Assembly: GCA_027460535.1 (NCBI GenBank)
Contig: JAPZAR010000037.1
Location: 1-9,236, forward strand
Direction of reading: 5' to 3'
Origin: Candidatus Methanoperedens sp.
Lineage (GTDB): Archaea > Halobacteriota > Methanosarcinia > Methanosarcinales > Methanoperedenaceae
DNA: 9,236 nucleotides
Position 1 is the first letter of the stretch. Every line of letters begins with the position of its first letter. The position numbers were made by a program, and so were the translations under genes. Shown here one piece after another: positions 1,630 through 9,236 of this stretch. The notes below the pieces were generated by a model, which was given only the letters and a program-made list of their open reading frames with translations, was not told where the DNA came from and ran no database searches.

Positions 1630-2217
1630 TCATTTTTTTCCAACACTGAATACTTTAGATGCAAGCAAAACCATAAAAAGAACGACACCAGCTTCGATAC
1701 CAGGCAACTTAACTGCCCCCCTTCTCTGTAAAACCACCGGCTGTGTCTCATTCTTCTCTTGTGAAATTGTATTTGTTGCTTCTGGGATCGCCGGAGTGCC
1801 AACTTTTGGGGGGGCAGTGGAAGTTGCAGTAGTTGTTGTTCTTGATGCTTGAGGCTGTCCCGATCCCGATTGAGTGGATGTTGGCGCAATCTGGCCGGTC
1901 TGAGCGATCATCACGGTCAGGTTCAGTGTTCCCGGCGTAGTGCTCCATTTTATGCTCTGGGCCTTTACATTATTAACATAAAAATCCACCAGACCCTGTC
2001 CGTTTTCAACTTTCATGCCGTAAATCCCTGTTTGTGACAGTACTGTACTGCCTTTGACCTCTTCGCCTATCATTGCTTTGATCACAGTATCTTTTGGCGC
2101 AGGTGCCCCATTGATATAAACGCTGCCGCTCACTACCATCGGAAGCATGGGCACTGCGCTGGCCACCTGTGCAAGGAGAGTTATGCACAATAATATTCTA
2201 TATGTCCACCGCTGCAT
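1630..2217 (-). CDS. Small secreted protein with Thr/Ser-rich linker and C-terminal PGI + hydrophobic + basic tail (PGF-CTERM-like membrane anchor or sorting signal)
   Basis: This is track ORF 1630..2226. I prefer the second ATG (2217), which has AGGA 8 nt upstream; the first ATG has none at usable spacing. N-terminus MQRWTYRILLCITLLAQVASA is signal-peptide-like. The core VSGSVYINGAPAPKDTVIKAMIGEEVKGSTV..GIYGMKV..VDFYVNNVKAQ..GTLNLTV resembles the N-terminal module of the downstream beta-helix protein. The linker is APTSTQSGSGQPQASRTTTTATSTAPPKVGTPAIPEATNT. The C-terminus is LPGIEAGVVLFMVLLASKVFSVGKK. The gene overlaps the upstream gene by about 20 nt, suggesting translational coupling. Confidence 0.7.
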   Translation of the reverse strand: MQRWTYRILLCITLLAQVASAVPMLPMVVSGSVYINGAPAPKDTVIKAMIGEEVKGSTVLSQTGIYGMKVENGQGLVDFYVNNVKAQSIKWSTTPGTLNLTVMIAQTGQIAPTSTQSGSGQPQASRTTTTATSTAPPKVGTPAIPEATNTISQEKNETQPVVLQRRGAVKLPGIEAGVVLFMVLLASKVFSVGKK

Positions 2218-4597
2218 AAGTCGCATCCTGAGTCATGAATATCCAATAGCCTCTACCAGGCTCAAAAACATTAAACTCTTGCAGAGAGGGATTTCCAACG
2301 ATATACATCTTCCAGCCTTCATCAGGCGAATAGGTCAGAAGATGGCTGTATTTTCCATCTATCGAGATTAACGCGCTTTGAACTGGCATATTTCCTGTGG
2401 AAGTATGGCCTATCAGGTTCCATCCTGCTCTCAGGAGCATCGAAGGTGGTACGTTTGGACCTGCCATGTTCTTATACGAGAGTTTCTGGTATGATTGATT
2501 TGAGGCGTTATTGTATACCCAGTAGCCGCGCAGCGGAGTGATCTTGGAAGGATTTTCCCAAGCGTTGGTTGAAGTATTGTAGTACCATTTGATGTTGAAC
2601 GGGTCCAGGCTAAGGTTGGCAAAAGCAACATCAACTGCGGAATTATTCAGCGTCTTTGGCACCGATACGAGATTCCACGTATTTCCAACAAAGTTCAGGG
2701 TATCGAATGGCCGGGGAGGAGGCGGCGGCGTAAGGATTTCGTATGTCACGAAAGGGTAGTATCTCAGATCAGTTGCGCTGTCCGCAACCCTGAACTTCAA
2801 CTCACCCATGATGTCAACAGTTCCATCCTGTGTAAGGTCCACTGATTTATCTTTGTTCTTCAGTACAAGGGTATCGGTACCCGCTGCTACTACTTCCATG
2901 TTGCCAAATACATCAGAACTCTTAACTTCTGTGACTGACGTACCTATTGCCCATGTGTATCTCAGCTGCACCATATCGCTTGTGGCACCAGCAAAAACGC
3001 TGTCCACATATGTTATGAACAATGGAACATCTGTCTCGCCTGCAAAGCTCTTCTCTATGTAAGTATAAACTCCGCCCTGTTGGATTACCTTATCGTCCTT
3101 CTTTACGCCATCCTTGCTCAGAACAAGCCATACCTGTCTCGGCGATGCTTTGGCATCAACGCTCTGGGCTAATAGTGTCCAGCCGTCTCCGATATCCCAG
3201 GTCTCTCCGACCGTCAGTGACTTCTTTTCATTAGTGGCATTGCCCTGCTCGATTATAAGCTTGGCTAATTTTTTAGCATTGGATTTTATCGGTATGTAGG
3301 GCTGCGCCTGCCAGCCTATGATAGGATATTGCCCGGTTCCACTGGCATTGATCTTCAGCATATCAGAATCTGTGGCGTTGAGCTTACCATTTTCGACCAC
3401 TTTCAAAGTCTTGAAAGTTTTGGTCGTTGTGTATATCAAATTTTCATTAGCTCCATCAATGTTTCTATTTTGGACGCTCAAGACCCATAGATTCTCTGTC
3501 TTTAAGTCATTCTTTAAATCGTACCAGAATCCTGCAAAGTTTGAAGCATCCCAATAGCGAGGCGTGGGATCGCTGAGACTGCCTGGTACTGAAATGACCA
3601 AGCCGCGTACCTCATATGTTCCAGGCTGAGTTCTAACTACCATTGGGTAATATCTCAAATCGGTGGCGCTGTCTGCCACTCTGAATTTCAAATCACCCAT
3701 GATGTCAATAGTTCCATCCTGTGTAAGGTCCACTGATTTGTCTTTGTTCTTTAGTACAAGGGTATCGGAACCCGCTGACGTTAACACCATTTTGCCAAAT
3801 ACATCGGAACTCTTAACTTCTGTAACTGAAGTACTTATTGCCCATGTGTATCTCAACTGCACCATATCACCGGTTGAACCCGGGGACACGCTGTCCACAT
3901 ATGTAAGGAACATAGGGACATTTGTCTCATTTGCAAGGCTTTGATTGTAAATATAGATCCCGCCCTGTGCGATGATCTTGTCGCTAACGTTGATACCATC
4001 TTTATTAAGAACGAGCCTTGCCCGCAACGTACTTGCATTGATGCTGGCCGCGGTTAAATTCCAGCCATCCCCGATATCCCATGTTTCTCCCACTTCCAAG
4101 GTTTTCTTTTCAGTTGTCGCATTGCCCTGCTCGATAACAAGCTTGGCTAATTTCTTAGCATTGCCTTTTACCGGAATGTAGGGCTGCGCCTGCCAGCCTA
4201 GGATAGAATATTTTCCGGTTCCACTGGAATTGAACATCATCATATCAGAATCTGTTCCGTTGATCTTACCATTTTCGACCACTTTCAAAGTCTTGAACGT
4301 TTTGGTTGTTGTGTATATCAAATTTTCATTAGCTCCATCAATGTTTCTATTTTGGACGCTAACGACCGAAAGATTCTCTGTCATTAAGTTATTCTTTAAA
4401 TCGTACCAGAATCCTGCAAAGTTTGAAGCATCCCAGTAACGAGGCGTGGTATCGCTGAGACTGCCTGGTACTGAAACGACCGCTCCGCGGATTTCCACGC
4501 TATATGCCTGAATATTCGCACTTGCATGCATTGATGTTAGCATTGCAATAAGAATTGCCGATGCTGCAATGACAGCTATATCCAATTTTTTAATCAT
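2198..4597 (-). CDS. S-layer-family surface protein: signal peptide, two tandem DUF1608 (S-layer family duplication) domains, PPPPPRP linker, and a 169-aa unassigned C-terminal domain with no TM anchor
   Basis: This is track ORF 2198..4612 (804 aa). The first ATG (4612) overlaps a GGAGG box, so the likely start is the second ATG at 4597: MIKKLDIAVIAASAILIAMLTSMHASA, signal-like. The PRYWDASNFAGFWYDLKN...GWQAQPYIP...GETWDIGDGW...MVQLRYTWA...LKFRVADSATDLRYYP block occurs twice and matches my recollection of the Methanosarcina S-layer DUF1608 domain. The C-terminal part (aa 636-804 in track numbering) contains two WNL(V/I)..(R)GYW(V/I) sub-repeats. Confidence 0.9.
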   Translation of the reverse strand: MIKKLDIAVIAASAILIAMLTSMHASANIQAYSVEIRGAVVSVPGSLSDTTPRYWDASNFAGFWYDLKNNLMTENLSVVSVQNRNIDGANENLIYTTTKTFKTLKVVENGKINGTDSDMMMFNSSGTGKYSILGWQAQPYIPVKGNAKKLAKLVIEQGNATTEKKTLEVGETWDIGDGWNLTAASINASTLRARLVLNKDGINVSDKIIAQGGIYIYNQSLANETNVPMFLTYVDSVSPGSTGDMVQLRYTWAISTSVTEVKSSDVFGKMVLTSAGSDTLVLKNKDKSVDLTQDGTIDIMGDLKFRVADSATDLRYYPMVVRTQPGTYEVRGLVISVPGSLSDPTPRYWDASNFAGFWYDLKNDLKTENLWVLSVQNRNIDGANENLIYTTTKTFKTLKVVENGKLNATDSDMLKINASGTGQYPIIGWQAQPYIPIKSNAKKLAKLIIEQGNATNEKKSLTVGETWDIGDGWTLLAQSVDAKASPRQVWLVLSKDGVKKDDKVIQQGGVYTYIEKSFAGETDVPLFITYVDSVFAGATSDMVQLRYTWAIGTSVTEVKSSDVFGNMEVVAAGTDTLVLKNKDKSVDLTQDGTVDIMGELKFRVADSATDLRYYPFVTYEILTPPPPPRPFDTLNFVGNTWNLVSVPKTLNNSAVDVAFANLSLDPFNIKWYYNTSTNAWENPSKITPLRGYWVYNNASNQSYQKLSYKNMAGPNVPPSMLLRAGWNLIGHTSTGNMPVQSALISIDGKYSHLLTYSPDEGWKMYIVGNPSLQEFNVFEPGRGYWIFMTQDATYAAVDI
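2735..3625 (-). repeat. DUF1608 domain copy 2 (intragenic tandem duplication)
   Basis: Track aa ~330-626. A 53-nt perfect match links 3426-3478 to 4308-4360. A 30-nt perfect run agttccatcctgtgtaaggtccactgattt occurs in both copies. Confidence 0.85.
3626..4507 (-). repeat. DUF1608 domain copy 1 (intragenic tandem duplication)
   Basis: Track aa ~36-329 of the 804-codon ORF. Aligns to copy 2 at an offset of 882 nt (N-terminal part) to 891 nt (C-terminal part). Confidence 0.85.
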
Positions 4598-4605
4598 TTT
4601 AATTT

Positions 4606-4610
4606 CCTCC
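4606..4610 (-). promoter_or_regulatory. Shine-Dalgarno GGAGG for the S-layer-family gene
   Basis: Minus-strand sequence is aATGGAGGAAATTAAAATG. GGAGG lies 8 nt upstream of ATG 4597. Confidence 0.6.
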
Positions 4611-4867
4611 ATTCAACCAACTCACCTGCGACTTTGGGCTGCGTGTAGATAAAAAAACTATTAATACTATAATTCCCCATGCTATTCCAGGAACTCTCCA
4701 TATACCATTCTTATTTGAGACCATAATCAAGCCACCTCTTTTCACAAATACCACGTATCCCGAGCGATAAGTCTACAACTCATGCTCGCGGGAACTCCAC
4801 GACCTTATTCAATGAGACATCATCTCACGATAAGGAAATCTCCAAGCTTTTCCGGACGTACTGAGAA

Positions 4868-5054: not shown

Positions 5055-5191
5055 TGACCTGCGCGCCTTTATCTGCCGGTTCGTCGCCTGAAATCTAGCA
5101 CTGTTTGCTCTCCTCTTGTGGATTATACGCTAACGGTTGCATCGGGTTCTATCCCACGCCGCCACTGTAAAAATATGACATTAATGTAACC
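5055..5191. repeat. Degenerate copy (D) of the intergenic repeat module
   Basis: tacgctaacggttgcatcgggttctatcccacgccgccactgtaaaaatatgac aligns with tacgctattggttgcctgggattcctattggcgccgccacagtataaagatatac (7133-7187). It is preceded by gacctgcgcgcctttatctgccggtt (compare gactctgggcgccttcatctgcggtt) and followed by attaatgtaacc (compare attaatgtaatc at 7091). Confidence 0.5.
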
Positions 5192-5195
5192 TAAG

Positions 5196-5589
5196 TTTGA
5201 CAGATGGCAGTCTTCTTAAAAGAGAATATTCTCTTTTAACAACAAATTTTCGATATTTTATCAGGAAAATCTATTTGACAGTTGAAAAAAATTCCCCTAT
5301 TCTTGGCTATTTTTTAGCTTTTTTTCTGGAAATTCCTACAATTCTGAACTAAAATAGGCTTATTATTTGAGTGAAAATAACAAAAATATACCATTCTTGT
5401 TTATTTTTTTCGAAAATCTACAGCAACTGTCAAAAAACAAGTGAAAAATCAAAGAAATCGCATTCAACAAACAGAAATAGAACTGTCAAATTTATGCGTG
5501 AAAAAATGATGAAAAATGCAAAAACTACGTTTTATCGTTGATAATAAAAATTGTAAAATCATTCAGTAATAATTAGAACTGTCAAATTT
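5196..5589. repeat. AT-rich non-coding block with five copies of an AACTGTCAAA-type motif in opposed orientations
   Basis: TTTGACAGat at 5196-5205 and TTTGACAGTT at 5274-5283 have one orientation. AACTGTCAAA at 5425-5434, 5481-5490 and 5577-5586 have the other. The last two share 16 nt (tagaactgtcaaattt at 5478-5493 and 5574-5589). gtgaaaa starts at 5381, 5441 and 5497, giving degenerate 56-96-nt units. Confidence 0.7.
5216..5239. repeat. Perfect 24-bp palindrome ttaaaagagaat|attctcttttaa
   Basis: Read directly from the sequence: 5216-5227 is the reverse complement of 5228-5239. Confidence 0.9.
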
Positions 5590-5591
5590 GG

Positions 5592-5814
5592 GATGTAATC
5601 CAATCTGCGTTTATCGGCGTTATGCCCGCCGCGACGTATAGACACGTATCTCCTCGTATGGGCCATACGTGTGGGCGATGTCAACTGGCGCAACGGTTGA
5701 CGTGGACGCACCCTCCCGAGGCGCGACTCGGGGCGTTCATCTGCGGTTTGTTATTTGCGCTATTGGTTGCCTGGGATTCCTATTGGCGCCACAACTGTTA
5801 AAAAACATACTTTA
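5592..5814. repeat. Repeat module copy A (short-motif site filled by a hairpin element, followed by the ctattggttgcctgggattcctattggcgcc block)
   Basis: gatgtaatccaatctgcgtttatc ... ttcatctgcggtttgttatttgcgctattggttgcctgggattcctattggcgcc..catacttta aligns with 7092-7191, except for the extra 5616-5735 segment. Confidence 0.7.
5616..5735. repeat. 120-nt GC-rich hairpin element inserted in the AATCTGCG-TTxATC-TGCGG motif
   Basis: Flanked by tttatc (5610-5615) and ttcatc (5736-5741). Hairpins are cgtatgg/ccatacg (5655-5669), gtcaac/gttgac (5680-5700) and cccgag-gcgcga-ctcggg (5715-5732). The right half aligns with 6981-7016. Confidence 0.6.
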
Positions 5815-5904
5815 AATAATTAATTCCAATCCTGAACCTATCCCCACCACAGACGCATCTCACCTTACCCACTCATACATCCTCACTCAGAATGCCGCTG
5901 TATG

Positions 5905-5926
5905 AAAAATAGCTGAAAAACAAAAA
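5905..5926 (-). terminator. Oligo-T runs (3 x T5 on the minus strand) downstream of vapC-1
   Basis: Minus strand reads cgcTTTTTgTTTTTcagctaTTTTTcat, 23-44 nt after the stop at 5949. Archaeal termination typically uses oligo-T tracts. Confidence 0.4.
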
Positions 5927-5948
5927 GCGGTGCAGAATCAAAAACTAT

Positions 5949-6347
5949 CTACCTCATATCATTCATCTTAAAAGGATTATATATTTCCAGGTCTTCAACG
6001 CCGCTAAAATCTTTACTATTTCTTGTTACAAGAATCAAATCACCAGATAAGGCTGTTGCTGCAATTACGGCATCAGGTAGTTTAATTCTATGGTTTCTTC
6101 CAATATCTACCGTTAAGTCTGCTATTTTATTATTTAGTGGAATTGTTTTTGCAAAACTGACGAACTCCTTCGCCTTATCATATCCTTCTTTTGTATGCTT
6201 ATCCCATCCTAAAAACTCAATCCTTGTAATGATAGAAATATTAAAAGACATTTTGAGAATATTTTCAACTGTATCAAGTTCTTCCAGAGGAATTACATCA
6301 GCAAAATAGTAAATGAGAATGTTCGTATCTAATAGATATCTATTCAT
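5949..6347 (-). CDS. vapC: PIN-domain ribonuclease toxin (VapC family)
   Basis: This is track ORF 5949..6359. The sequence (MDKG)MNRYLLDTNILIYYF...RIEFLGW...LPDAVIAATAL...LVTRNSKDF carries the acidic PIN signature (D, E, D, D/N). Starting at the second ATG (6347) gives a classic ATGA overlap with the upstream small ORF's stop. Local GC is low, about 30% on the one line I counted. Confidence 0.85.
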   Translation of the reverse strand: MNRYLLDTNILIYYFADVIPLEELDTVENILKMSFNISIITRIEFLGWDKHTKEGYDKAKEFVSFAKTIPLNNKIADLTVDIGRNHRIKLPDAVIAATALSGDLILVTRNSKDFSGVEDLEIYNPFKMNDMR

Positions 6348-6508
6348 TCCCTTATCCATTCCTCTCTCAGTTTTTCAATCTCCACTTTAAAATCTATTCT
6401 CATATCCTTGTAAATTCCTTTATATTTTGAGGGATTGAAAACTTTTTTCTTCTCCTGCTTTCTCATCGGTCTTATAACCTTATCCTTGTGCATTGCTTTT
6501 TGTCTCAT
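6344..6508 (-). CDS. Putative antitoxin partner of VapC-1 (54 aa, Lys-rich, no fold recognised)
   Basis: My own translation; the ORF is below the track's size cut-off. Sequence: MRQKAMHKDKVIRPMRKQEKKKVFNPSKYKGIYKDMRIDFKVEIEKLREEWIRE*. Position and 4-nt (ATGA) or 16-nt overlap with vapC are typical of type II TA operons. The start is uncertain; internal ATGs lie at 6493 and 6466. Confidence 0.55.
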   Translation of the reverse strand: MRQKAMHKDKVIRPMRKQEKKKVFNPSKYKGIYKDMRIDFKVEIEKLREEWIRE

Positions 6509-6555
6509 AATGCATCTAATTAACTGAATGAGCTATAGATGTTAATAACCTTTTG

Positions 6556-6567
6556 TTTATGCATAAA
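6556..6567. promoter_or_regulatory. 12-bp perfect palindrome TTTATGCATAAA, a TATA-like or possible operator site upstream of the vapBC-1 operon
   Basis: Read directly; it lies 48 nt upstream of ATG 6508. The function is inferred only. Confidence 0.3.
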
Positions 6568-6627
6568 AGACAGCTAAAATCACTCGGAAAAACAGCAGCG
6601 TTGGCAGTTTCTATGTATTCTTATCCC

Positions 6628-6759
6628 TTACAGCAACCATTGGCCGCAATGCTGCCCCGTGTGCACAAGCGCCTTCCCATGCTCCCCCCACAGTTCCCGG
6701 GAAAGCGGCGCGCACTTGATGAACTGGGGGCGGGCGACCACGATTGAGATGATTTTCAT
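6628..6759 (-). pseudogene. wecB: Decayed 5' fragment (C) of a UDP-GlcNAc 2-epimerase gene
   Basis: My translation: [43 protein letters not shown]. It matches the conserved epimerase N-terminus ([10 protein letters not shown]...HTGQHYD), but with G to V, HYD to HCG and a premature stop. It shares a 33-nt perfect run with fragment B (6704-6736 = 7282-7314). Confidence 0.75.
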
Positions 6760-6785
6760 ATTCTGCTCTTAGATATAACGCGGGA

Positions 6786-6793
6786 TATATAAA
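6786..6793 (-). promoter_or_regulatory. TATA box (TTTATATA) upstream of wecB fragment C
   Basis: Minus strand reads ccctaTTTATATAtcccgcgttatatctaagagcagaatATG. The TATA lies ~27-34 nt upstream of the ATG, implying a leaderless or very short-leader transcript. Confidence 0.5.
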
Positions 6794-6910
6794 TAGGGCG
6801 CTTTTGGACATTGCGGGGATCTTTGGGCTGGTGGTTGTCCCGGTTCTCACAGAGGGCCATGACTATGAAAATATATAGTTTTTAATTCAATTTATCATAA
6901 TCCCTATCAA

Positions 6911-7035
6911 CAAATCTGCGTTCATCATGCCGAAACCCTGCGGGTTCTCGACTCCGCGCACACGCATGGCGCAGCCATGCGTGGACACGCCCTCCAGAGG
7001 CGTGACTCTGGGCGCCTTCATCTGCGGTTTTTTTT
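6911..7035. repeat. Second filled AATCTGCG-TTCATC-TGCGG site (B1) carrying a 90-nt hairpin element (6927-7016) and ending in T8
   Basis: Layout is caaatctgcgTTCATC[atgccgaaaccc...ctctgggcgcc]TTCATCtgcggtttttttt. Hairpins are a perfect 10-bp stem cacgcatggc-gca-gccatgcgtg (6961-6983), ccagag-gcgtga-ctctgg (6994-7011) and cgaaaccc/gggttctcg (6931-6950). Confidence 0.65.
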
Positions 7036-7091
7036 CGTTCCGTAGGTTGTTTCGGCCTTTTACGAAGCGCCGAGACTGTTGAAACAATTAA

Positions 7092-7191
7092 TTAATGTAA
7101 TCAAACCTGCGTCTATCCGCGGTTTTTTAATTTACGCTATTGGTTGCCTGGGATTCCTATTGGCGCCGCCACAGTATAAAGATATACTTTA
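7092..7191. repeat. Repeat module copy B2 (empty version of the short-motif site, followed by the ctattggttgcctgggattcctattggcgcc block), abutting wecB fragment B
   Basis: ttaatgtaatcaaacctgcgTCTATCcgcggttttttaatttacgctattggttgcctgggattcctattggcgccgccacagtataaagatatacttta. It is collinear with copy A but lacks the 120-nt hairpin segment. Confidence 0.7.
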
Positions 7192-7337
7192 TGTATTCTT
7201 ATCCCATGCAGCAATCCATGGTCATAGTGCTGCCCCGTATGCACCAGTATCTCCTCATGTTCCCGTCGCAGTTCGCGTGATAGCGGCGCGCACTTGATGA
7301 ACTGGGGGCGGGCGCCCACGATGGAGATGAGCTTCAT
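7137..7337 (-). pseudogene. wecB: 5' fragment (B) of a UDP-GlcNAc 2-epimerase gene that reads out into the repeat module
   Basis: This is track ORF 7137..7337: [41 protein letters not shown]... Epimerase similarity is clear for about 41 aa (7215-7337). The frame then continues through repeat sequence to a stop at 7137. Confidence 0.8.
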
Positions 7338-7370
7338 TTGTGTATCTGGGTTCTTTTAACTATTGAAATG

Positions 7371-7378
7371 TATTTAAA
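7371..7378 (-). promoter_or_regulatory. Candidate TATA box (TTTAAATA) upstream of wecB fragment B
   Basis: Minus strand reads caTTTAAATAcatttcaatagttaaaagaacccagatacacaaATG. The TATA lies ~34 nt upstream of the ATG. Confidence 0.4.
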
Positions 7379-7591
7379 TGTGTTTACTATGGTGTATTGA
7401 TGGAGGGAAAACACATGTGCATCCGCGAAATTAGCGGCATCTGTGTTCTATTCTATTTTGATGGCATCTGTTCTTTTGTGAGCGGTGGTTGCTTGGGGTT
7501 CGTATCGTGCGCCGGGGATTTTATATATAGTATGTGATTATATTATCTTTTAATCTGCTTATCAGGTTTCTGAAGGTGGCGACAGGAATAT

Positions 7592-8104
7592 TCACGGTTT
7601 CCAGACAGTTATGCCTTCGATTCGCTCAAAATCGCTGTCGTTGGTCGCGATATCAGATATTGATTCATATTTCATTACAGCTATATGCAGAGCATCATGC
7701 GTTAAAAGCATGTTTGCCTTCGCAACATTAATACTGCTTTTAAAAACGTCCGGCGAGATCTCACGTACAGTTAGATTGTCTATCTCCTGTATTCTATCGA
7801 TATCTTTCCATGAAGCCTCAAGCAAAGGAATTTCTTTGTAATTTTTCTTCAAAAATGGAACTGTCTCTTTTATCGAAATCTGAAATTTATCTGATGCCTC
7901 GATTAAAATCATCTTATGGAGAACTTCATCAAGAACAAGTGTTGAAGTAACACCATCGATCGCTCCATTTTCAACATCTTTTAAAATTCTATATGCGCTT
8001 TCACTAAACTTCGGATGATCAAATACCTCATATAGAAAGATATTGGCATCAATGAAAACTCTTTTACCCGTTGGAATTATGCTTAATCCTCGTTTAAATC
8101 CCAT
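7592..8104 (-). CDS. vapC: PIN-domain toxin (VapC-like, 170 aa with an extended helical insert)
   Basis: Track ORF with KRVFIDANIFLYEV...LVLDEVLHKM...LLTHDALHIAVM...IATNDSDF, which gives the PIN acidic residues in the expected order. It overlaps the upstream AbrB-type gene by 22 nt. Confidence 0.8.
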   Translation of the reverse strand: MGFKRGLSIIPTGKRVFIDANIFLYEVFDHPKFSESAYRILKDVENGAIDGVTSTLVLDEVLHKMILIEASDKFQISIKETVPFLKKNYKEIPLLEASWKDIDRIQEIDNLTVREISPDVFKSSINVAKANMLLTHDALHIAVMKYESISDIATNDSDFERIEGITVWKP

Positions 8105-8316
8105 ATTTCAGCCAATATTATTTCATCGATCTTGTCCTTATTTTCAACTTTAATAGATCCTCTGAGTTCATCTACGATTGTCTGTTTCGATCTTCGGGAT
8201 TTTGGTCTTATTAAAATCTCATGTTTTTCGGTCAGAATTTCAAAGTTCTCAATACCGAGTTGCCTTAGCACTCCTTTTGGGATTAGAATTCCTTCTTTGA
8301 CCATCTTGATTTCCAT
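8083..8316 (-). CDS. vapB: AbrB/SpoVT-MazE-type antitoxin (VapB-like)
   Basis: This is track ORF 8083..8334, whose listed start is a GTG. I prefer ATG 8316, which has GAGG 8 nt upstream; ATG 8304 is also possible. The sequence MEIKMVKEGILIPKGVLRQLGIENFEILTEKHEILIRP is a swapped-hairpin AbrB-like N-terminus followed by an acidic/basic tail. Confidence 0.75.
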   Translation of the reverse strand: MEIKMVKEGILIPKGVLRQLGIENFEILTEKHEILIRPKSRRSKQTIVDELRGSIKVENKDKIDEIILAEIWDLNED

Positions 8317-8350
8317 TTTCAAATCCTCTAACACCAGTTAGATATTCAAT

Positions 8351-8358
8351 TTATATAA
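8351..8358 (-). promoter_or_regulatory. Candidate TATA box (TTATATAA) for vapBC-2
   Basis: The ccTTATATAAattg box is centred ~38 nt upstream of ATG 8316, consistent with a short leader. Confidence 0.45.
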
Positions 8359-8524
8359 GGTTCACGTAGCTTATCGTATGATTTTTTTAAGTATAGGAAA
8401 CTATAAGCACTTATTCCCATCTTGCGTATTGTTTTTTCTCAGGACAATTGATGTTCACAAGCATCTGTTACGACAAGGAATACTTTCACATTGCTTGCAT
8501 TGTCATCTATGAACCAAGTTCATC

Positions 8525-9236
8525 TCACTCAATATTATCGAAAACATTCAAAATCTTATTGCTTGCACTTTCGCCAGCACACATATTCTGCTGAATGCTT
8601 GTGGGAACCGGTTTTTGTACAGTCCCAATAATCCTGCCCTTATCCGCCCCCACCAGCACATTCCACCCACCCTCCAGCGTCTCCACCCACTCTGTATTCT
8701 CCCGCAGTGTGATGCACGGCACTCCCAGCACATACGCCTCCTTCTGAATACCTCCTGAATCGGTCAGTATCTTCTTCGCACTTGCCATAAGCTTAAGCAT
8801 ATCCAGATATCCCAGGGGCTTGATCAGCTTCACATTCTCAGGCATCAGCAGCCCATATTCCCTCAGATATTTCTCAGTCCTCGGATGCACAGGAAACACC
8901 ACAACTCCGCCAGTCTCACCCAGCGCCTCGATGATATTCGTCATGTTCTCCCTGCTGTCAGTGTTGCCAGGACGGTGTACTGTGATCACAAGATACTTAC
9001 CCTTCTCAAGCGCAAGCTCCTCGATTATTCCGGACTTTTTCTCGGCTATCTTCAGGTTATACTCAAGCGCATCCACCATCACATCCCCCACCAGGTACAC
9101 ACCTGCTGAAATACCTTCATTTGCCAGATTATCCACCGCAGTCTGTGTAGGGCAAAACAACAGGTCAGATATATGGTCTGTCAGCACCCTGTTGATTTCC
9201 TCGGGCATGCTCCTGTCAAAACTGCGCAATCCAGCT
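8525..9236 (-). CDS. wecB: UDP-N-acetylglucosamine 2-epimerase (non-hydrolysing), 5' end outside the window
   Basis: The frame is open to the right edge. It reads (E)AGLRSFDRSMPEEINRVLTDHISDLLFCPT...VTVHRPGNTD...FPVHPRTEKYL...KPLGYLDMLKLMASAKKILTDSGGIQKEAYVLGVPCITLRENTEWVETLEGGWNVLVG, which are hallmark epimerase motifs. The track's M at 9229 is actually a TTG (Leu) inside the AGLRSFDR motif. About 95 N-terminal residues are missing. Confidence 0.92.
   Translation of the reverse strand, partial: AGLRSFDRSMPEEINRVLTDHISDLLFCPTQTAVDNLANEGISAGVYLVGDVMVDALEYNLKIAEKKSGIIEELALEKGKYLVITVHRPGNTDSRENMTNIIEALGETGGVVVFPVHPRTEKYLREYGLLMPENVKLIKPLGYLDMLKLMASAKKILTDSGGIQKEAYVLGVPCITLRENTEWVETLEGGWNVLVGADKGRIIGTVQKPVPTSIQQNMCAGESASNKILNVFDNIE

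Follow-up and report, generated by a model that had tools for sequence, protein, structure and literature searches.

The window analysed here, the 9,236-nt contig JAPZAR010000037.1 of Candidatus Methanoperedens sp. (GCA_027460535.1; coordinates refer to this window unless a contig is named), carries the toxin-antitoxin (TA) module vapBC-1. The module lies in a locus built from repeated starts of wecB, the UDP-GlcNAc 2-epimerase gene, and from tandem, diverged intergenic repeats of about 95 nt, termed U units, which form the non-wecB share of the repeated unit. Three joints are central to its interpretation: sites A and C, on either side of vapBC-1, and site B, a related joint that lacks the module.

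The vapBC-1 block extends from about 5847 (or 5815) to 6611 and contains its own promoter, vapB-1, vapC-1 and terminator-like oligo-T runs. As expected of a VapBC system, a PIN-domain toxin with four conserved acidic residues (D11, E48, D96 and D117, all kept and invariant in an alignment of 11 homologs) is accompanied by a small, overlapping upstream gene. VapC-1 matches the NCBIfam VapC models, but under their curated cut-offs. Neither Pfam nor NCBIfam recognises the 54-aa VapB-1; the related contigs L015, L016, L023 and L025 each have, beside the toxin gene, a gene equal to it in size and placement. Upstream of vapB-1, the palindrome TTTATGCATAAA (6556-6567) is a candidate operator. As read from its sequence, the block is predicted to be a self-contained type II toxin-antitoxin module. 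The VapC-1 family is widespread, with 60-77% identity in Thermococcus, Methanobacterium, Methanothrix and Anaerolineae.

Contig L011, from the same metagenome-assembled genome (MAG), shares 139 nt with the right end of the window at 100% identity, and this adjoining 8.7-kb contig extends the window to a 17.8-kb composite locus. Read in the direction of wecB (minus strand of the window), the composite begins with multi-haem cytochrome genes, a wecB promoter with the 5' fragment W(-1), BrnT/BrnA (BrnT being called in the near-identical contigs L012 and L013, not in L011) and a promoter with the fragment W0. It continues with MntA-HepT (NCBIfam), full-length wecB-1, a pair of an 84-aa protein and DUF2283, a wecB 3' remnant and full-length wecB-2, which ends at 8525. 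These are followed by vapBC-2 (8334-7592), the fragment W1 (7337-7217), site B, and a copy of the wecB-2 upstream region with the fragment W2 (7034-6639). Finally come vapBC-1, site A, an AT-rich repeat region and an S-layer gene. Five TA modules (BrnT/A, MntA-HepT, the 84-aa/DUF2283 pair, vapBC-2 and vapBC-1) lie interleaved among six wecB-start copies, two of them full genes and the other four fragments, across L011 3698-8344 and window 6612-9236. A TA module occupies four of the five intervals between wecB starts, the W1-W2 interval with site B being the only empty one. The locus is a TA hot spot in a variable surface-glycan/S-layer region.

Alignment of the three joints relates B to both of the others. 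Sites A (5733-5814) and B (7109-7191) are 84% identical over 83 columns (local alignment; blastn E ~1e-18), and sites C (6612-6759) and B (7190-7337) are 82% identical over 148 nt (blastn E ~5e-36), while local alignment of A with C found no significant similarity (score 17). The intervals of B that match A and C share only the dinucleotide TA at 7190-7191; since they overlap by these two bases alone, the switch is sharp. The initial annotation, made from the window alone, had described B as collinear with A on its left and with C on its right, with the switch inside a short TTTA/TA microhomology. Both descriptions agree with these alignments, which place the switch on TA 7190/7191 and have the A/B and B/C similarities meet at one sharp point. 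One correction concerns the wecB fragments: their wecB similarity stops at about 7217 and 6641-6650 (nt ~121 of the gene), and the last ~27 nt before the TA are a unit end and a short linker.

The joints are reproduced in other assemblies. Contigs L001 and L002 cover junctions A, B and C, L006 covers B, and L004 covers C and A; the junction-carrying contigs come from an NCBI MAG (GCA_027460495.1, Candidatus Methanoperedens sp.), two ENA assemblies and a Logan assembly, and are 99.9-100% identical to the window. The sole difference between the window and the MAG contig is a 136-nt indel at 5433/5434. An assembly artefact, in which repeats produced a mis-join in a metagenome-assembled genome, would draw on the abundance of repeats at the locus, on contig breaks within wecB and on the short contig L003, with its unrelated GC-rich 140-nt head and fold-back tail. 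However, the A, B and C junctions are identical across contigs of four separate assemblies or samples, and this recurrence indicates that they are not a mis-assembly; we regard an artefact as extremely unlikely. L003 was also considered as a third context for the block, as its sequence differs left of 6555, and was set aside as unreliable. Its first 140 nt are unrelated GC-rich, coding-like sequence fused to position 6555 within the vapB promoter, probably a chimeric assembly, and are excluded as evidence. Its fold-back falls exactly at 5213-5242, a near-perfect 30-nt palindrome (TTCTTAAAAGAGAAT/ATTCTCTTTTAACAA), and looks like an assembly artefact.

The U units give site B its context. In each unit, ...TGCGG and a run rich in T lead into a core (GCTATTGGTTGCCTGGGATTCCTATTGGCGCC in A and B); a C(A/T)GT-A-rich segment then connects this core with the end ATGTAATC..AATCTGCGTTYATC. 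A U-unit profile (nhmmer) matches at 5101-5194, 5733-5823, 6821-6880, 7014-7105, 7109-7199 and 7458-7545, with two further matches in L011. Two copies outside the training set were found in a second MAG (contig L010; nhmmer E 4e-11 and 6e-8), so the family is real and present there too. In U_0 (5165-5191) and U_mid (7076-7102), CTGT is followed by exactly 15 nt and then by ATGTAAYC (ATGTAACC / ATGTAATC). Site B (7172-7198) has CAGT, 15 nt and then ATGTATTC at 7191-7198, spanning the junction in the register of U_0 and U_mid. This shared register in three copies makes the B junction sequence native to the repeat family. Site B can thus be read as an uninterrupted U unit and unit end joined to W1, and it appears to represent the unoccupied state. 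Its earlier designation as the unoccupied counterpart gains from the two other copies, which run on at 5165-5191 and 7076-7102 just as B does.

A second context of the block is provided by L015, a single 876-nt metagenome contig from a sample other than that of the window. It holds the block at 96% identity from window position 6610 down to 5847, with 94% identity in the non-coding ends. Its similarity to the window, 94-96% in the promoter region, ends at 6610, within 1 nt of 6611; beyond this point L015 has no W2 and carries another U copy, with its R site (described below) empty and a unit end, that is ~60-65% similar to any window unit. The change of flank within 1 nt of 6611 makes the vapB-side end at 6610/6611 a true breakpoint. 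The 96% identity of the block against ~60-65% similarity of the L015 flank indicates that the block is much younger than its flanks or has been exchanged independently of them. Together with the 15-18% divergence of A/B and C/B, it speaks for the block having been acquired or exchanged later than the local duplication.

The end on the vapC side is harder to place. The 32 nt at 5815-5846 resemble the unit end at 7092-7118 (TAAT-TAATTCCAATCCTGAACCTATCC against TAATGTAAT--CAAACCTGCGTCTATCC; shuffle p ~0.01), and the block may either stop near 5846 or stop at 5815, carrying the unit end of an earlier site. Either placement leaves degenerate direct repeats, namely diverged unit ends, flanking the block. 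L015 stops 9 nt past the last clearly aligned base (5847), with poor similarity there that an indel can explain. These 9 nt were considered as proof of a block end at 5846 and dropped, being too short and regaining similarity with a 4-nt indel. Of the earlier view that 5815-6611 is a discrete insertion, the discrete block and its real vapB-side end at 6610/6611 stand, and the A-side end is less sharp than proposed, given that 5815-5846 resembles a unit end. The inventory given for that segment (T-runs, vapC, a small antitoxin gene and a palindromic TATA-like site) is matched by the oligo-T runs, the PIN match, the 54-aa open reading frame (ORF) and TTTATGCATAAA. The features of the locus are compiled in Table 1.

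Table 1. Positions of the vapBC-1 block, U units, wecB-derived segments and neighbouring genes in the window
Feature	Position	Strand	Basis or remark
U_0, diverged U unit	5101-5194	+	nhmmer E 8e-15; continues uninterrupted into ATGTAACC at 5184-5191
U_A, unit of site A: start (GATGTAATCCAATCTGCGTTTATC), R' insert 5616-5735, L_A core 5753-5814	5593-5814	+	Alignments, nhmmer
Ambiguous 32 nt: vapC-side tip of the block or diverged unit end (AATAATTAATTCCAATCCTGAACCTATC + CCCA)	5815-5846	+	Alignment with 7092-7118
vapC-1 3' flank, four oligo-T runs, archaeal terminator-like	5847-5948	-	Read directly; 94% identical in L015
vapC-1, PIN-domain toxin, 136 aa	5949-6359	-	Pfam PIN E 8.7e-10, above cut-off
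vapB-1, presumed antitoxin, 54 aa	6344-6508	-	ORF list; 16-nt overlap with vapC-1
Putative vapBC-1 promoter/operator region with palindrome TTTATGCATAAA at 6556-6567	6509-6611	-	Read from sequence
Site C joint: unit end (TATGTATTCTTATCC) and ~12-nt linker	6612-6638	-	First 16 nt identical to B 7190-7205
W2, wecB 5' fragment, codons 1 to ~40	6639-6759	-	blastn against full wecB copies
wecB upstream copy: TATA-like promoter ~6760-6810, U_E 6821-6880, R 6927-7016 between two TTCATC	6760-7034	-	
U_mid, repeat unit	7014-7105	+	nhmmer E 1.6e-17
U_B, unit of site B: empty R site (TCTATC/CGCGG, 7112-7122), L_B core 7130-7191	7109-7199	+	Alignments, nhmmer; uninterrupted into unit end
B joint (7190-7216) and W1, wecB 5' fragment (7217-7337)	7190-7337	-	Alignments
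U_D and its end (AATCTGCTTATC, 7552-7563)	7458-7563	+	nhmmer E 1.8e-11; 28 nt from vapC-2 stop codon
vapBC-2: PIN toxin of 170 aa and overlapping 83-aa upstream gene	7592-8334	-	Pfam PIN E 1.3e-11
wecB-2 (UDP-GlcNAc 2-epimerase), 3' two-thirds	8525-9236	-	Pfam Epimerase_2 E 1.7e-67; 5' end on L011

On balance, vapBC-1 was probably acquired by homologous or microhomology-mediated recombination in this TA hot spot. The interpretation builds on direct observations: the anatomy of the locus, a toxin that is intact, one block end with independent confirmation, and a B junction whose sequence is native to the repeats. From these we infer the direction of the event, insertion and not deletion, and the mechanism of recombination. 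The block sits at the boundary of two U units, next to a dead wecB 5' fragment, and B is an interval of the same kind without a module. One route could be homologous or homeologous crossover at repeated wecB starts or U units, among them the Campbell-type integration of circles that carry a TA module; another could be microhomology-mediated joining at the dinucleotide TA, or homology-facilitated illegitimate joining. Neither would require the module to encode a transposase or integrase itself. Any loss of the module through recombination between the flanking repeats would be counteracted by the addictive TA pair, and selection of this kind would help to preserve these repeats.

The reverse order of events has to be weighed against acquisition. 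Here B would be derived, from a duplicated unit that once held vapBC-1 or another module and lost it via the unit-end repeats or the TA/TTTA microhomology. Unit-end-like sequences do bracket the block (5815-5842 and 6612-6625), and a crossover between them would recreate the exact B-type junction; moreover, W1-W2 is the sole exception among five wecB-start intervals that otherwise hold a TA module. However, the block is 96% identical to the copy of the other population, against 15-18% divergence of the A/B/C flanks, and thus seems to postdate the duplication. Selection should also act against losing an addictive TA pair. At the B junction the sequence is the native one found between units in never-occupied copies, so that no past occupant is required, and no residual vapBC-derived bases were seen in B. 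Deletion fits the identity levels less well than acquisition does, and we consider it unlikely.

Several points weigh against acquisition as the preferred reading. The A-side breakpoint, and with it the apparent 2-bp duplication of TA, is uncertain owing to the resemblance of 5815-5846 to a unit end. The block end depends on one extra context, in which the contig stops before the vapC-side end could be settled. Two local paralogous units may not suffice to prove insertion over deletion, and an orthologous empty site in another genome was not found. No circular intermediate or donor was seen, and one relative of the module, in L023, lies outside a glycan cluster and has no flanking repeats. Database searches were negative within their scope: neither the W-joint pattern nor a 24-mer from the block end matched anything in JGI metagenomes, IMG/VR yielded nothing for the L core or for VapC-1, and the sole result from a plasmid database was a wecB match in Haloterrigena.

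Of the wecB copies, the two full genes are 94% identical over 1 kb, and the fragments break at about nt 107, 121, 131 and 175. The fragments are 77-92% identical in their first 107 nt, and for the wecB-start copies of the composite locus the identity is 77-89%; most of these copies carry a promoter. The 60-nt promoters, at 80-97% identity, are more conserved than the first 107 coding bases, with the exception of W1, which has another upstream sequence. W2 is 92% identical to wecB-1 over 156 aligned nt, 46 of which precede the start codon, and 82% identical to W1; window 7034-6641 is 86% identical over 396 columns to the upstream region and first ~120 nt of wecB-2. The 66-aa ORF of W1 matches wecB N-termini over its first ~44 residues only. 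W1, W2 and the fragment on L010 share a few bases past the wecB similarity, which indicates that the truncation is old. Truncated wecB starts also edge a conserved UDP-sugar operon in other genomes, there without a TA module, and a 95-aa wecB stub follows a UDP-sugar dehydrogenase gene in L019-L021. One further candidate stub, P0004, is merely a frameshifted gene. Downstream of the wecB stub of the second MAG, a long hairpin of repeated CACGGAT / ATCCGTG lies at L010 ~6480-6570.

Some U units additionally contain R elements, which are GC-rich, hairpin-forming sequences that follow ...TTYATC and have a second TTCATC behind them. They occur in three units, whereas the R site is empty in U_B and in the L015 unit; the R' insert in U_A is bracketed by TTTATC (5610-5615) and TTCATC (5736-5741). 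The elements, of ~90-120 nt, lie at 5616-5735 and 6927-7016, at L011 ~7979-8068 and at L010 1020-1091 and 1172-1253. They have a central hairpin with some compensatory changes, their flanks in this locus resemble a 6-bp target duplication, and another Methanoperedens MAG contains copies in both orientations. They match nothing in Rfam and look like a family of miniature inverted-repeat transposable elements (MITEs) or structured repeats. Scanning the window for Rfam families and tRNAs produced nothing of relevance, so the repeats correspond neither to a known RNA nor to an att site of the tRNA type.

A site-specific cassette system offers a different account of these neighbours. In it, a recombinase encoded elsewhere would target the unit end (ATGTAATC..AATCTGCGTTYATC) and insert both TA modules and R elements. 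In three cases an R element indeed follows directly on a unit end, always with 6-bp TTYATC direct repeats. Unit ends also lie before the vapC side of vapBC-1 (CCTATC, 5837-5842), before the vapC side of vapBC-2 (AATCTGCTTATC, 7552-7563) and before the W1/W2 joints; the site is empty in two units, and the L015 copy of the block too adjoins a unit end. Yet the target is duplicated only at R elements, and the rest of the unit is missing after TA blocks. The TA-module ends have no common motif, there are no hairpins or inverted repeats, the distance from site to cargo varies from 4 to 28 nt, and adjacency is partly expected because units fill most of the intergenic space. The 17.8 kb contain no integrase or transposase. 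Adjacency to unit ends is the one hint of such a system, every further hallmark being absent, and we consider it very unlikely here.

Direct tests of mobility point the same way. No terminal inverted repeats pair the block ends, the ends fold as single-stranded DNA no better than shuffled sequences (z 0.2-0.8), and they have no motif in common with the borders of the other four TA modules or of related loci. No recombinase, integrase or transposase was found among the ORFs and Pfam hits of the window and L011. The initial annotation had likewise noted no terminal inverted repeats and no recombinase in the window, and the adjoining contig now extends the latter result; its suggestion of a cassette moved by a trans-acting site-specific recombinase is not supported, as there is no att- or attC-like structure, hairpin, shared motif or integrase, and the wecB breaks vary. 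As an integron cassette, the block would be without an attC-like inverted repeat or fold at its ends, and without an integrase in the composite locus. An att site of an integrative element is contradicted by the variable wecB breaks, the 77-92% identity of the copies and the same lack of an integrase.

A MITE-like block mobilised in trans, inserted either at TA with a 2-bp duplication (IS630/Tc1-like) or beside TTTA (IS200/IS605-like), is less probable still, and we hold it to be highly improbable. The dinucleotide TA does lie on both sides of the block (5813-5814 and 6612-6613) and once in B, which fits a 2-bp duplication or plain microhomology. However, the IS630-Tc1 type lacks its terminal inverted repeats, and the base pair beyond the same block end in L015 is not TA. 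For an IS200/IS605 passenger (PATE-like), there are no significant subterminal or end hairpins, and TTTA adjoins 5815, which is itself an uncertain, possibly not the true, end.

Relatives of vapBC-1 in other archaea extend the comparison. The same vapBC lineage (69-77% amino acid identity) is found in four other archaeal glycan loci, among gene fragments; in two of the four, the vapBC pair is itself bordered by diverged direct repeats derived from host genes. In L016, vapBC lies behind a hexapeptide transferase gene, between rmlA 3' fragments at 309-398 and 1234-1324 (84%). In L025/L026 it lies between GT1 glycosyltransferase fragments (89%) nested in rmlA fragments (86%), at L025 381-500 / 1279-1398 and 3-250 / 2456-2705. 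L017 carries a vapC relative in an AglB/glycosyltransferase cluster, where 382-nt repeats (82%; 3128-3501 / 4378-4757) flank a different TA pair, AF2212/PIN. Glycan loci of other archaea thus also hold TA pairs bounded by direct repeats (82-89%) that are pieces of neighbouring genes, a pattern expected from single-crossover integration of TA-bearing DNA through a conserved anchor or from homology-facilitated illegitimate joining.

A broader proposal would be that TA modules of Methanoperedens-type archaea spread as integrase-free recombination cassettes. Each would carry a piece of a glycan gene (the wecB start, or the 3' end of rmlA or a glycosyltransferase gene) or a U-unit end as its crossover anchor, building TA arrays separated by diverged direct repeats, with the TA pair guarding the repeats from collapse. 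We offer this as speculation and consider it decidedly unlikely. In a stronger version, the U-unit end (AATCTGCGTTYATC) may be a dedicated insertion site common to R elements and TA modules. If the repeat-flanked pattern, found so far in several unrelated contigs, is general, homology-anchored integration would allow TA modules to spread without dedicated mobility genes, and the persistence of gene fragments around TA pairs would be explained.

Several further observations concern the surroundings of the block. The motif AACTGTCAAA (or AACTGTTAAA), which is the 3' part of the U-unit core, occurs six times in 5196-5802 (minus strand at 5196 and 5274; plus strand at 5425, 5481, 5577 and 5793). 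The copies surround an AT-rich core, and the seven window-wide matches with at most one mismatch were reached by 2 of 200 shuffles. The arrangement recalls protein-binding repeats beside an unwinding region, with no origin-related gene nearby. L001 has, at 3665-3800, 136 additional bases relative to 5433/5434 that include two further TTTGACAG motifs, reflecting, in this AT-rich repeat region, either copy-number variation or assembly collapse. A degenerate L-core pattern, tried in 185,579 species genomes, gave two chance bacterial matches only, the family being too diverged for exact patterns. The S-layer gene (2198-4612, minus strand) has an internal tandem duplication of ~854 nt at 82.6% that yields two S-layer domains. 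The closest database relative of its product (80%) is a paralog with a PGF-CTERM signal at a different locus; a search with this neighbour for an orthologous empty locus was accordingly discarded, its closest match being that paralog in another context.

Among known systems, the closest are chromosomal TA modules. In Photorhabdus, TA modules cluster in high-turnover spots as autonomous selfish units that are gained and lost (PMC13617665), and Sulfolobus islandicus has horizontally acquired vapBC pairs in variable regions (PMC3718332). The present case shares with them an intact, promoter-bearing vapBC, clustered with other TA modules in a variable locus and without a recombinase of its own, as well as presence or absence against conserved flanks and near-identical copies in different contexts. 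It differs in that diverged direct repeats (a wecB start or short intergenic repeat), not insertion sequence remnants or integrases, flank the module, and in that the host is an uncultured methanotrophic archaeon. Integron cassettes, including the TA cassettes of the Vibrio superintegron, are likewise small modules separated by repeats with TA cargo. In contrast, this locus has no attC-type imperfect palindromes and no intI, its modules have their own promoters, and its separators are unequal gene fragments.

Repeated wecB-start fragments that punctuate foreign inserts recall tandem genomic islands with partial target genes (attL/attR), although here the break positions vary, no integrase is present, the inserts are below 1 kb and full-length wecB copies lie within the array. 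Truncated sugar-nucleotide genes also border variable segments at the edges of O-antigen or capsule-like clusters; in the present locus such scars are multiplied, and the intervals are filled by a TA pair in place of glycan genes. Homology-facilitated illegitimate recombination and Campbell integration likewise combine extended homology on one side with 2-4-nt microhomology on the other, and the 10-18% divergence of the flanking direct repeats is as expected if one copy is donor-derived. Here, however, the process is purely inferred, and it is undocumented for Methanoperedens.

The vapBC-1 case is ordinary selfish-TA behaviour in a variable cell-surface locus and not a new kind of mobile element. 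It agrees with the established view that TA modules are selfish passengers in regions of high turnover, and it shows at sequence level, for a methane-oxidising archaeon not yet in culture, a TA pair that forms a discrete indel. Around it, the repeated wecB starts and U units organise a five-module TA island. What is new, compared with the systems above, is an example from Methanoperedens with an unusually legible repeat architecture.

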